Below the pieces are notes generated by a model. The model was not told the origin of the DNA. It did no database searches and worked only from the letters and a program-made list of their open reading frames with translations. From Candidatus Campbellbacteria bacterium (GTDB lineage Bacteria; Patescibacteriota; Minisyncoccia; Phycocordibacterales; UBA1006), in the NCBI GenBank assembly GCA_002698305.1, contig NZWR01000004.1, positions 4,347-68,346 of the forward strand: a stretch of DNA of 64,000 nt. The letters are read 5' to 3'. Of the stretch, positions 3,848-61,137 are shown in pieces (the stretch's first letter is position 1; every line of letters starts with the position of its first letter). Made by a program: the position numbers and the translations under genes.

Positions 3848-3918
3848 GGGCGATTAGTTAAATGGTATAATAGAGGTCTCCAAAACCTTAGTTGGGAGTT
3901 CGATTCTCTCATCGCCCG
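3848..3918 (+). tRNA. tRNA-Trp (anticodon CCA)
   Basis: Hand fold: acceptor GGGCGAT/ATCGCCC, anticodon loop CTCCAAA, T-arm GGGAG-TTCGATT-CTCTC, discriminator G. No encoded CCA. Confidence 0.9.
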
Positions 3919-3925
3919 CTGCATG

Positions 3926-3998: not shown

Positions 3999-4034
3999 GG
4001 GAGCGTAGCGAGCGGTAATTCTCTCATCGCCCGC
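3999..4034 (+). repeat. Partial direct copy of the tRNA-Trp T-arm and 3' acceptor
   Basis: GGGAG + 14-nt insert CGTAGCGAGCGGTA + ATTCTCTCATCGCCCGC. The 17-nt 3' part is identical to 3903-3919 of tRNA-Trp. No matching 5' acceptor strand is present. Confidence 0.8.
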
Positions 4035-51892: not shown

Positions 51893-52090
51893 ACTTTTAG
51901 TATACCATGTGAAATGAGTGTGGTTACTTAATTACAAGAGGTTTACTGCTTACTACACCTCAAGAGTACTTGTAAAACATAATCGCTACTACTCTTTGTT
52001 TTTGAGCCCGCTTCCAGTATAAACTTGATGGAGTAGCCAAGGTCTCAAAAATATAAAAACCGAAACGCCTTGCGTTTCGGTTTGCAGTTG

Positions 52091-52177
52091 CGGAGAGTAA
52101 GGGATTCGAACCCTTGAAACCTTTGACAGTTTACTTCGTTAGCAGTGAAGCGCTTTCGACCACTCAGCCAACTCTCC
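52091..52177 (-). tRNA. tRNA-Ser (anticodon GCT)
   Basis: Acceptor GGAGAGT/ACTCTCC, loop CTGCTAA, long variable arm, T-arm AAGGG-TTCGAAT-CCCTT, discriminator G. Confidence 0.88.
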
Positions 52178-52194
52178 GTGTTTTTTAAATATAA

Positions 52195-52316
52195 TGAAGA
52201 GTGGTCGAACCAGTTCGCCTGTTTTGATCTGATCATGTACATTCACAACGATCAATCACTTCGCGACCACCTGAAACGATACGCAGGTATCCTTTCAGCC
52301 ACTCAGCCAACTCTCC
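52195..52316 (-). other. Aberrant 122-nt tRNA-Ser-like element (not a foldable canonical tRNA)
   Basis: The first 18 nt are identical to tRNA-Ser, and 23 of the first 27 match. The 3' end ACTCTTC-A pairs with the 5' GGAGAGT. Internally it has a 12-bp hairpin and a GGTCG/CGACC helix instead of anticodon and T arms. Confidence 0.4.
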
Positions 52317-52382
52317 ATTACCAGTCATCCTACCATGCTCACTTGGCATTTCAACTGTTTAAAGTTTGCTATACTAAGCTAT

Positions 52383-52541
52383 ATGCCAGCAGATTCAGAA
52401 CAACAGCGCCGTGCAGCCGGTGCAGCATTATCAGCAAAACGTGATGACACCCGCGTATCAGACCTCAAAGGAGCCTCAAAAGAAATGTATGACTCAATGA
52501 CAGAAGAAGAATTGTCAGACATGGCTAGTAAAGATGAGTAA
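52383..52541 (+). CDS. DUF3008-family small protein
   Basis: MPADSEQQRRAAGAALSAKRDDTRVSDLKGASKEMYDSMTEEELSDMA. ATG 52383 lies 7 nt after a TATACT box. Confidence 0.6.
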   Translation: MPADSEQQRRAAGAALSAKRDDTRVSDLKGASKEMYDSMTEEELSDMASKDE

Positions 52542-57410: not shown

Positions 57411-57484
57411 TGCGCCTATAGCTCAATTGGCTAGAGCGCCGAGCTTATTCCTCGGATGTTGGGGGTTCGAGTCCCTCTGGGCGT
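57411..57484 (+). tRNA. tRNA with anticodon TAT (nominally Ile) and a non-canonical anticodon loop
   Basis: Acceptor GCGCCTA/TGGGCGT (G1:U72 wobble), perfect stem CCGAG/CTCGG, loop CTTATTC (U37, C38), T-arm GGGGG-TTCGAGT-CCCTC. Confidence 0.6.
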
Positions 57485-57551
57485 ACTAAAAATTTTAGAA
57501 CATAACGCGTTGCGTTATGTTCTTTAATTTTCTACGCCCAGAGGGACTCGA
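57465..57551. repeat. 87-nt near-perfect palindrome built on the 3' end of the tRNA(UAU)
   Basis: The 20-nt ttcgagtccctctgggcgta (57465-57484) recurs as a perfect inverted copy at 57532-57551. The centre is a 12-bp hairpin at 57496-57522. Confidence 0.9.
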
Positions 57552-57804
57552 AAAGAATGAAGCGGTATACAAGACGAGCGAAAGCGAGTGCTTGTCGCGA
57601 ACGCCCAGCCTAGGACGATGAGTGCTAAGACGAATCTTTGCACCACAGGAGTATTTCTAAAAATATATTCACTATGTTCATTATTTTTATGTCATTCTAG
57701 TCGTGAGCCATCGTGGTAGGTGAGTCTTCAAAAATAGAGCTTTCGCGGAAAAACACGTATGTGTTTTATCTGTGACCGAGTCCTTATTTATGCAAAAAAA
57801 AGAC

Positions 57805-59823: not shown

Positions 59824-60267
59824 ATGAATTTACTCGTGAATAAAACCTTACGGCAAAAATATGAAGTGCTTGATACCTATGAATCGGGAATAAAACTCTC
59901 TGGCTGGGAGGTTAAAAGCTTGCGGCAAAAGCATGGCTCACTGAAAGAAGCCTATATTTCAGTTGATGCTGAGGTTTGGTTAAAAAACTGTTTTATTCCA
60001 ATATACCAACCTGGACACAAAGACCATGAAGGTCTTGATCCATATCAGCAAAGAAAATTGTTACTGAAGAATAAGGAAATTGAAAAAATATATGCACAGC
60101 AAAAACAACAAGGTCTCACTGTTGTACCTGTCCGCATCTATGAAAAAGAAAATCTTATTAAAATAGAAATTGCTGTAGCACGAGGGAAAAAATTGTATGA
60201 TAAGCGTAAAGATATGAGGGATAGAACAAGCAAAAGAGACGCCGAGCGAGCTGCAAAGAACTTTTGA
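59824..60267 (+). CDS. smpB: SsrA-binding protein SmpB
   Basis: 147 aa, YETGIKLSGWEVKSLR..IAVARGKKLYDKR. Confidence 0.92.
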   Translation: MNLLVNKTLRQKYEVLDTYESGIKLSGWEVKSLRQKHGSLKEAYISVDAEVWLKNCFIPIYQPGHKDHEGLDPYQQRKLLLKNKEIEKIYAQQKQQGLTVVPVRIYEKENLIKIEIAVARGKKLYDKRKDMRDRTSKRDAERAAKNF

Positions 60268-60477: not shown

Positions 60478-60502
60478 ATATGAATGATTGCGTAGCTCCT
60501 TT

Positions 60503-60650
60503 AAACAGTTCTCAAAAAATTAACAAGTCTTGCAGCTATTTTTTATGCATCACGATGATATGTAGTTCTCCTTAACCTACCTCGACTACGCTCGAAGAGG
60601 TCTCAGACAGTCCGCAGGCCATACTTTATTCTCTTGTATGGTATTTTTAT
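60503..60650 (+). other. Possible decayed partial copy of the ssrA upstream/5' region, ending in a terminator
   Basis: AAACAGTTCTCAAAAAATT (60503-60521) matches AAACAATTCTCAAGAATT (60728-60745). Loosely collinear blocks ACAAGTCTTGCAGCTA, GTAGTTCTCCTTAAC and a hairpin follow. There is a terminator hairpin at 60619-60648. Confidence 0.3.
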
Positions 60651-60751
60651 TTGAGTATCATATATTACATAGCTCGCTCTGCCTGCTTCGCTGTCGCTCA
60701 GATTGGCAGTTACAGGCAACCGCGCTCAAACAATTCTCAAGAATTGTTTTC

Positions 60752-61130
60752 GGGGATGACAGGCTTCGCTAAGAAGATTGTTGTTCCTTAATTGCATATC
60801 GTGATTGACGCGATCACGTTAAACAGTGTCACTCCTTAAATGGAAAATCAATTGCTTCACCCTACAAGGTGAACACTCTAGCAATCGCGTAACAAACCTC
60901 GCGGCTAGTGCACCCTACCCTAATGTTCATACGGGGTAATGGTGTATCATAACCTTTGAACTAGATAGATAGAGCTTTCTCCTCTATCCACTCGAAGTAC
61001 AGAAGAATCGAGTAACTATCGCTTTTGTTTATCTTTTAGATAACTTGCTCTAAATAAATTAAGGTAGACTATATATGTAGACGTTAAGGGATTTCCTTTT
61101 TACACGGCGGTTCGATTCCGCCCATCTCCA
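60752..61130 (+). ncRNA. ssrA: tmRNA (SsrA), one-piece
   Basis: The 5' GGGGATG pairs with the 3' CATCTCC, including G3:U70. T-arm GGCGG-TTCGATT-CCGCC, discriminator A. The internal tag frame ends ..NTLAIA-TAA (stop 60890-60892). Adjacent to smpB. Confidence 0.85.
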
Positions 61131-61137
61131 CATCGGG

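Follow-up and report, generated by a model that had tools for sequence, protein, structure and literature searches.

A chimeric element built in part on the 5′ end of tRNA-Ser, with a conserved and covarying RNA structure, upstream of tRNA-Ser(GCU) in Patescibacteria

What are we to make of a tRNA gene that is preceded, at a very short distance, by a partial copy of itself? The question is raised by a stretch of 64,000 nucleotides (nt), hereafter the window, from Candidatus Campbellbacteria bacterium (assembly GCA_002698305.1, contig NZWR01000004.1, positions 4,347 to 68,346). On its minus strand an element of 122 nt (52195-52316) lies 17 nt upstream of an intact tRNA-Ser(GCU) (52090/1-52177), which is identified by ARAGORN and matches the Rfam tRNA model with 57.7 bits. 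As an original prediction made from the letters of the sequence had it, the first 18 nt of the element are identical to those of the tRNA, and 23 of the first 27 match. That prediction understood the element as a tRNA-Ser derivative with replaced anticodon and T domains, possibly a decaying pseudogene, more probably a structured RNA scaffolded on a tRNA. We find a conserved structured RNA, built on part of tRNA-Ser, and to this extent the proposal holds; the scaffold holds only in part, as the clear tRNA copy is limited to 18 nt and the T-stem is unsupported. The element is best described as a chimera, not as a tRNA with replaced domains: the copy of tRNA-Ser nt 1-18 is interrupted after nt 18 by a 75-nt module, M, itself followed by a fold-back comprising a hairpin (hp3) and a tract antisense to the tRNA.

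Reading the minus strand from its 5′ end, the chimera begins with the direct copy, GGAGAGTTGGCTGAGTGG (52299-52316), the only part that is clearly derived from the tRNA in this orientation. The core module M then opens with a 12-bp hairpin carrying a CUGC loop, hp1 (52271-52298, CTGAAAGGATAC-CTGC-GTATCGTTTCAG). Foreseen as a 12-bp tetraloop hairpin, hp1 is indeed there, its 12 pairs being 11 of the Watson-Crick type and one G.G mismatch; it occurs once in the window, where none would be expected by chance at up to three mismatches. Next come a junction, G(U/A)GG, with a mini-hairpin, J (UCGC-GAA-GYGA; 52256-52270), nearly invariant in sequence, and hp2 (52224-52255), where a 6-bp outer helix leads to UGUGA ... 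GA, a tandem G.A arrangement compatible with a kink-turn (K-turn), to a 2-bp helix and to a loop of 3-4 nt. The fold-back starts with hp3 (52203-52220), a hairpin with a 5′ strand, GGNCGAA, similar to tRNA nt 17-23 and a 3′ strand antisense to the same nucleotides, around a loop of 3-4 nt and of variable sequence. It ends with the antisense tract, UUCGACCACUC, then ACUCUUC (52196-52209), which pairs with nt 1-7. The last 8 nt, ACTCTTC-A, pair with GGAGAGT over 7 bp, one of them G.U, as had been anticipated. It was also correct that neither a 7-nt anticodon loop nor a T-loop is present: the loop of hp1 has 4 nt on 12 bp, that of hp3 3-4 nt. The minimum free energy (MFE) fold of the whole element reaches -42.7 kcal/mol (z = -2.9 against shuffles).

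Is this structure maintained? Homologues were gathered using RecG as an anchor, together with one metagenome pattern scan, and amount to ten distinct copies (loci being designated by L numbers: the window, L043, L002, L076, L005, L003, which is the same as L085, L084, L087, L092 and L094), scoring 124-152 bits with a covariance model. In every one of the ten, tRNA-Ser(GCU) follows directly on the same strand, and RecG in these genomes is 72-84% identical to that of the window. The pattern scan, with TTTCAGGNGGTCGCGAAGNGA, returned 13 loci, three of which are real, L076 and two identical to the window (L071 and L081), while the other ten are chance matches in unrelated GC-rich DNA. The first bases of the L076 contig (1-22) look like an Illumina adapter (CTACACGACGCTCTTCCGATCT), an assembly artefact.

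Covariation at homologous loci had been suggested as a means to settle the matter. Computed helix by helix on the alignment of these 10 sequences, it reveals 15 pairs changed on both sides, against 5.8 in shuffles and at most 5 when the partners are slid; this is not random decay. Overall, 95.9% of the cells are paired, against 35-45% for slid controls. In hp1 8 of 12 pairs are doubly changed and 99.2% of the cells are paired. The five doubly changed pairs of hp2 are shared between its outer helix (three, 98.8% paired) and its apical 2-bp helix (two, 100% paired), and the inner 4 bp of hp3 contribute two more, stemming from a single event in L003 (100% paired, 95.0% with the two outer pairs). 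The TTGATC/GATCAA pairing noticed at the outset is likewise present and strongly supported by compensatory changes. While the stems covary, the loop and GA motifs are conserved. It is worth emphasizing that hp1, J and hp2 together contain nine G.U cells and no A.C cell on the tRNA-sense strand: this 9:0 bias points to selection acting on an RNA of that strand, and speaks against neutral decay as well as against a purely double-stranded DNA signal. A small open reading frame (ORF) behind the GGAGG-like junction was considered and rejected, because 1-nt indels in L087, L092 and L094 would shift its frame and because the substitutions are pair-compensating.

The helices proposed to close the molecule fare differently. 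The 7-bp acceptor stem, thought to be preserved, is present in the window, but over the ten copies this acceptor-like helix (1-7/118-124) has 85.7% of its cells paired, is fully paired in seven and shows no double change; L094 has lost it, and in L087 and L005 it is weak. For GAGUGG (13-18)/CCACUC, an alternative that overlaps it, 91.7% of the cells are paired. Similarly, the GGTCG/CGACC sequences lie where a T-stem would be expected, but for the 5-bp helix that they could form covariation is lacking, and L003 breaks it, the compensating change there being in the partner from the local hairpin. As the columns of the junction are invariant, covariation cannot choose between mini-hairpin J and a pairing reminiscent of a D-stem (10-12/57-59, 15-18/51-54); the GUCG-CUUG-CGAU variant of L092 favours J.

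The sequence of hp2 fits a K-turn in 10 of 10 copies, with an invariant UGU bulge and GA/GA. One compensatory event, 69-85 from U-A to C-G in L003, supports the K-turn register (68-86, 69-85); a rival, non-kinked register with tandem G.A (70-72/85-87) also pairs, with no such event. K-turn hairpins bound by proteins of the L7Ae family are found in the 5′ stem-loop of U4 small nuclear RNA and in box C′/D′ K-loops. hp2 has their succession of helix, 3-nt bulge ending in U, tandem G.A/A.G, 2-bp helix and small variable loop, with the difference that the unkinked register fits it equally well, apart from that one event.

How, then, is the element related to the gene that follows? Folding the whole precursor brought out that the 3′ tract, UUCGACCACUC, is the exact reverse complement (11/11) of tRNA-Ser nt 13-23 (GAGUGGUCGAA). 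What had been taken for a remnant of T-arm and acceptor is better explained as antisense to tRNA nt 13-23 and nt 1-7, and a T-arm origin for its GTTCGA gives way to this 11-nt match to the D-loop. The duplex of the tract with the 5′ part of its cognate tRNA is worth -14 to -25 kcal/mol. In L003 the D-loop of the tRNA differs, GGUUUAAAGUG (UUUAAAG), and both strands of hp3 have changed in step with it, GGAUUAAAG / CUUUAAACC (UUAAAG/CUUUAA), the antisense strand remaining complementary to its own tRNA at 12 of 13 positions. For L003 the duplex is worth -18.7 kcal/mol when the tRNA is its own and -13.4 when it is the standard one; pairing the other elements with the L003 tRNA costs them 2-11 kcal/mol (mostly 5-7). 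As the island of change spans about 9 nt without flanking homology, gene conversion seems an unlikely cause in this one lineage. The 5′ copy follows the local tRNA too (GGAGGCG in L094, GGAGGGT in L005), with single mismatches in L003 and L076, and in L092 and L094 the direct repeat reaches further upstream, to a length of 26-56 nt. Finally, two states of the precursor are comparable in energy: in six of six species the nearest-neighbour model gives a ‘swapped’ fold, where the 5′ strand of the element pairs with the 3′ strand of the tRNA and the antisense tract with its D region, an energy 2-8 kcal/mol lower than that of the ‘separate’ fold.

A comparable organization exists at a larger distance. 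Where RecG is only about 58-60% identical, a second, sequence-divergent family occupies the interval between the promoter and the orthologous tRNA-Ser (L015:223-340 and L040:5035-5150, both minus strand, 116-118 nt). Its first 15 nt copy the 5′ end of the tRNA, and the copy tracks the cognate tRNA here as well. An 8-bp hairpin, fully compensated, again bears a CUGC loop; a CGACCAC tract is present; and in the closing helix a change linked to the tRNA has been compensated (G11-C to A11-U). The covariance model R1, one of two (R1 and R2) built here, gives 17.7 bits on L040. In the group with RecG at 55-60% (L009-L069) we also observed two divergently transcribed tRNA-Ser genes, for example at L040:4945-5034: one is GCU, the other, according to ARAGORN, has the anticodon ACU (loop TTACTAA), unusual for bacteria.

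Transcription signals frame the pair in the window. A promoter-like site (TTGAAA, 16-nt spacer, (TG)TAGGAT; 52327-52354, minus strand) ends 10 nt before G1 of the element. From A122 a 17-nt A/U-rich spacer (52178-52195) leads to the tRNA without a terminator, and the sole terminator called in the element/tRNA-Ser unit is an intrinsic one, a 12-bp stem with a U run (52057-52083, minus strand). The TAGGAT box also stands ahead of the element in L002, L003 and L084, and directly precedes tRNA-Ser in the element-free relative L004. Unlike the element, the spacer that separates it from the tRNA is not conserved between genomes. The organization in L094 is of another kind: the promoter and 18 nt form a perfect 56-nt direct repeat, found before the element and again before the tRNA, an AU-rich hairpin followed by a U run lies between the two, and the acceptor-complementary tail of the element is gone. 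The hairpin was judged to be a terminator by eye, in the MFE fold, and was not called by a simple terminator scan. From such signals the L094 element appears to be expressed independently, with a promoter and a terminator of its own.

The genes around the element are ordinary bacterial ones (RecG, receiver-domain proteins, SmpB, RbfA, SecG, GatC and pilins, with a transfer-messenger RNA (tmRNA) gene also in the window), and the nearest RecG loci in GTDB genomes all belong to metagenome-assembled genomes of Patescibacteria/Paceibacteria. Flanking genes and RecG neighbours together identify the window as part of a chromosome of the candidate phyla radiation (CPR; Patescibacteria), not of a phage. 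Diverging from the promoter region of the element is a small ORF, MPADSEQQRRAAGAALSAKRDDTRVSDLKGASKEMYDSMTEEELSDMASKDE (52385-52541, plus strand), which we take to resemble a small protein of the DUF3008 type; tblastn (E<=1e-5) found no match to it in the ten close relatives searched.

Module M is not confined to tRNA-Ser. A search with a model restricted to M found a weak hp1-J-hp2 paralogue with GAGC-GACA-GCGA in the window itself (60679-60752, minus strand; 30.1 bits, E 8e-4 over 84 sources and 1e-4 over 5 sources), abutting the 5′ end of the tmRNA gene (60752-61131, plus strand) on the opposite strand. Inverted copies stand at the same place in L085 (13951-14024, minus strand, 66 bits) and L004 (12165-12241, minus strand, 43 bits). 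All three fill the tmRNA leader of about 90 nt after the only promoter-like site there (TTGTGA-16-TATCAT in L085). These tmRNA-linked copies keep GAGC-NNNN-GCGA on the minus strand and fit only the non-kinked register of hp2. Weaker M-like modules, a CUGC-loop hairpin and a GAGC...GCGA hairpin, follow tRNA-Ile(UAU) in L085, L087 and L095, in a layout that is the mirror image of that at tRNA-Ser: tRNA, terminator palindrome, antisense copy of the 3′ end, hairpins and a direct duplicate of the 3′ 17-18 nt, which tracks the lineage-specific tRNA sequence. The mini-hairpin GAGC-N3-4-GCGA occurs four times in the window, against 1.3 expected, three of them beside tRNA-Trp, tRNA-Ile and tmRNA. More generally, 29 of the 151 tRNAs found over all loci are accompanied, within 450 nt, by a duplicate of their own terminus (the terminal 16 nt with at most one mismatch, or the inverted terminal 12 nt).

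Several individual arrangements of this kind deserve to be recorded. In the window, the region 3′ of tRNA-Ile(UAU) (57412-57486) displays a terminator-like palindrome and an exact inverted copy of the tRNA 3′ 20 nt (57533-57552) within 57487-57610 on the plus strand, and a GAGC-GAAA-GCGA hairpin at 57569-57595; in L085, L087, L094 and L095 the corresponding region ends in a direct, lineage-specific duplicate of the tRNA 3′ 16-18 nt. Downstream of tRNA-Trp (3848-3919), the segment 3920-4033 (plus strand) has a terminator, about 60 nt with GAGCGTAGCGA (4001-4011) and a direct duplicate of the tRNA 3′ 16 nt (4018-4033), a design matching that of the other tRNA-flanking inserts. Between smpB (59824-60267) and the tmRNA promoter, a region at about 60480-60650 (plus strand), without Rfam match, shares some conserved sequence with L085 (CCTACCTCG and ACAGTCC, for example) and terminates in a hairpin and T run (CCATAC...GTATGG TATTTTT); it may be an unannotated small RNA. 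Elsewhere, a copy of the tRNA-Ile 5′ end (about 16 nt) sits 301 nt upstream of tRNA-Ile in L028 (8620-8995, minus strand), the insert having two hairpins, which recur 3′ of the tRNA, and a small ORF, GIY-YIG-like by eye. A tRNA-Asp 5′ 16-nt copy is followed by a terminator-like hairpin in L037 (5638-5809, minus strand). Several tRNA-Ser 3′ fragments lie near an ART-PolyVal gene in L087 (2345-4503), and a GC-rich structured insert of about 175 nt after tRNA-Ser ends in a duplicate of the 3′ 19 nt in L002 (1636-1826). In L090 (4850-5360, plus strand), a rearranged locus without intact tRNA-Ser and unmatched by R1 and R2, two units end with a tRNA-3′-like ...CTCCGC and a terminator; one of them comprises J-like, GA-hairpin (GAACGATAGTGAA) and extended hp3-like (GAAC-TT-GTTC) pieces, with no hp1.

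Does the element belong to a known family? It lies outside the tRNA, tmRNA, Y RNA, T-box, riboswitch, ribozyme and group I intron families of Rfam 15. ARAGORN, run on the locus, calls only 52090-52177 and leaves the element uncalled; Rfam, even at E<=10 over 51950-52450, finds no T-box, riboswitch, tmRNA, Y RNA, self-cleaving ribozyme or group I intron, and both at gathering thresholds and at E<=10 it finds nothing over the related elements of L040, L002, L085, L094 and L095. The ARAGORN and Rfam scans suggested by the original prediction thus left the element unrecognised. Box C/D or H/ACA guides, hammerhead and signal recognition particle RNA were discarded, the expected boxes being missing on inspection and Rfam giving no match. 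The literature that we searched contains no earlier description of the element.

The element nevertheless resembles known tRNA-derived or tRNA-linked structured RNAs, in different respects. tRNA-Other keeps a recognisable tRNA fold. This pseudo-tRNA of Bacillus cereus has a non-translational role (PMC3399842). It too is a tRNA-derived gene near tRNA or island boundaries, non-decoding yet retained, whereas our element keeps just 18 nt of tRNA sequence and has every arm replaced. YrlA mimics the elbow of the T-arm and D-arm, and adjoins rsr/rtcB. A bacterial Y RNA with a tRNA-like domain (PMC4201824; bioRxiv 10.1101/312249), it is likewise a small structured RNA reusing tRNA-like features and probably the tRNA processing machinery. 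The present element differs from it in having no T-loop, no Rfam match at E<=10 and no rsr/rtcB neighbours. Group I introns that lie within tRNA genes run to hundreds of nucleotides. Those of Patescibacteria are inserted at 35/36 in the anticodon loop and are self-splicing (PMC13011429). They are another cause of tRNA-related loci escaping standard annotation in this phylum, but the element is 122 nt long, stands outside an intact tRNA and has no Rfam match at E<=10.

We tentatively favour, at a probability that we would put somewhat short of even, the explanation that the element is a lineage-specific leader or small RNA, selected at the RNA level and tied to the maturation of tRNA-Ser. Transcription from the promoter of tRNA-Ser(GCU) would yield a precursor made of element, spacer and tRNA, in that order. 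The antisense tract would pair with the element's own tRNA-like pieces, closing the RNA and neutralising both the decoy 5′ end and the tract itself, and an RNase P cut at the real tRNA 5′ end would release the element from this co-transcript. Once opened, the fold-back could let the antisense tract invade the D-arm and the 5′ strand of the nascent neighbouring tRNA, and the element would thus influence how tRNA-Ser folds or matures, as a strand-exchange device of the decoy/antisense type, with M binding a protein or ligand and so setting the balance between the pairings. This leader or small RNA would account for a sense copy kept identical to the tRNA together with a compensating partner, for the decay of the acceptor-complementary tail where the element is under its own promoter (L094, perhaps L087) and for the mirror-image design after tRNA-Ile. 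Riboswitches and attenuators rely on mutually exclusive pairings of a shared strand, and ribosomal RNA leaders pair transiently with the mature RNA. Here too one strand, the antisense tract, could pair with either of two partners, between which lies a structured, sensor-like domain; the proposed ‘expression platform’, however, would be the tRNA, and not a terminator or a ribosome-binding site. A bolder extension, which we consider improbable, is that of a hitherto undescribed Paceibacteria class of ‘triad’ RNAs, made of a sense end copy, a conserved hairpin module that binds a protein or ligand and an antisense end copy, that would gate both folding and maturation of tRNA (Ser, Ile, perhaps Trp) and tmRNA by strand exchange; if it were true, we would be dealing with riboswitch-like control having the tRNA itself as expression platform.

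A number of observations weigh against a role in tRNA-Ser maturation. The complementarity that covaries with its target (11/11, 12/13 in L003) comes down to one lineage (L003/L085) and one independent event, and complementarity to the tRNA is automatic if the element merely pairs with its own tRNA-identical pieces. The closing helices (1-7/118-124 and 13-18/116-121) have no double changes, because their 5′ strand hardly varies. The energies of the swapped fold are weak evidence, since nearest-neighbour energies are unreliable for tRNAs. The M copies linked to tmRNA are antisense to the presumed pre-tmRNA transcript, which is at odds with a simple RNA model. No candidate partner came to light either, as Pfam, run on 20 small ORFs from the window, gave housekeeping genes only (RbfA, SecG, GatC, SmpB and pilins, for example), with no protein of the L7Ae (PF01248) or Ro60 type. 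Last, the patchy presence of the element on the RecG tree and a similarity that does not parallel that of RecG also fit with mobility.

Mobility is the main rival, less probable in our view and somewhat unlikely: the element would be, or descend as a long-resident remnant from, a miniature mobile or integrative element that is not autonomous and targets the ends of tRNA-like genes, the displaced end being restored by a carried or duplicated copy and the hairpins serving the element itself as recombinase sites, DNA hairpins or RNA needed for mobility. A 5′ leader would be a safe site, because RNase P removes it. tRNA genes are commonly the attachment (att) sites of integrases, and the locus has two traits of an att remnant or of a miniature inverted-repeat transposable element: direct repeats of the target end flank the insert, from 18 nt in the window to the perfect 56 nt of L094, and precise empty sites, with tRNA-Ser directly after the promoter, are found in L001, L004, L088, L091 and L095. 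Presence and absence are interspersed on the RecG neighbour-joining tree, and the element must therefore be old and repeatedly lost, or have been gained more than once. Similarities of element and RecG are not congruent (r = 0.21, Mantel 1104/5000, not significant), the L094 core being 87-88% identical to those of L002 and L005 despite 71-72% for RecG, which, like the perfect repeat of L094, is a hint of movement; inheritance by vertical descent only is therefore not claimed. The inverted M at the tmRNA gene, the weaker matches after tRNA-Ile, the four GAGC-N3-4-GCGA hairpins, the 29 tRNAs with a duplicate of their own end and the GIY-YIG-like ORF of the comparable L028 insert would all be in keeping with mobility, as would an archaeal precedent, the tRNA-Thr locus of Caldiarchaeum, where an integrating element left a 5′ tRNA fragment upstream of the restored tRNA (PMC3293823). 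The succession of tRNA 5′ copy, insert and complete tRNA, the flanking direct repeats and the empty sites in relatives are alike in both cases; here, in contrast, the insert of about 120 nt has no recombinase, is orthologously conserved across species, shows compensation at the RNA level and also holds an antisense copy of the tRNA end. Indeed the insert neither contains nor adjoins a recombinase or transposase, there are only about 1-3 copies per locus (some 14-64 kb of sequence each), and two scans of viral contigs gave no match. The paralogues linked to Ser, Ile and tmRNA are far more divergent than the orthologues (R2 scores of 17-66 bits against 84-99), hence no sign of recent spread, and the compensatory changes with the 9:0 G.U/A.C bias indicate long-term selection on the RNA of one strand.

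As another alternative, the element could be a stand-alone small RNA or ribonucleoprotein scaffold, with M binding a protein through its K-turn-like GA hairpin and CUGC loop and acting in trans on something unrelated to tRNA-Ser. The tRNA linkage would then supply only a strong promoter and processing by RNase P and exonucleases, the tRNA-like ends being leftovers of birth by duplication. The apparently separate expression in L094, the conservation of loop and GA motifs amid covarying stems, and the agreement of hp2 with the K-turn consensus (its succession of elements being the layout of the U4 5′ stem-loop) would suit this explanation, to which we give a low probability: linkage to tRNA-Ser is found in two deeply diverged families, and the 5′ copy and antisense tract track the cognate tRNA, which a mere promoter hitch-hiker would not need. 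The lack of L7Ae- or Ro60-like proteins among the 20 small ORFs tells little against it, the window being a fraction of the genome. As for a functionless tRNA-Ser pseudogene decaying after tandem duplication, it would explain why the element adjoins its parent, has 18 nt in common with it, is missed by tRNA finders and was lost in several lineages. It is strongly disfavoured and very improbable, given the retention of ten conserved copies down to 72% RecG identity, with 15 compensated pairs, 95.9% pairing against 35-45% for slid controls and a strand-specific G.U bias, next to a spacer that is not conserved. A non-canonical tRNA-like RNA, CCA-tailed and aminoacylated for a non-ribosomal use, is equally far-fetched. 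The 7-bp acceptor-like helix is abutted by a hairpin of about seven layers in 7 of 10 copies, and G2.U71 (8 of 10 copies) together with A73 (in most) would suggest an identity changed from Ser; but T-loop, anticodon loop and variable arm are all missing, L094 has lost the acceptor pairing, which is also poor in L087 and L005, and a D-loop antisense is the better reading of the 3′ strand.

We regard the covariation as solid and the connection with the adjacent tRNA as unusual, in a distribution that is narrow. If the element is functional, it represents an RNA family that is new, has no entry in Rfam 15 and comes from a phylum about which very little is understood, and the end of a tRNA gene would here have been recycled into a structured RNA. 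It would also offer a concrete case in which to test whether bacteria that have tiny genomes and few protein regulators control tRNA maturation by means of RNA. Should it instead be a mobile element, it would be a widespread source of the tRNA-flanking repeats of CPR genomes (29 of 151 tRNAs in the sampled loci), repeats which confuse annotation and may drive rearrangements. Under either understanding, the covariance models R1 and R2 provide a direct way to survey the family.

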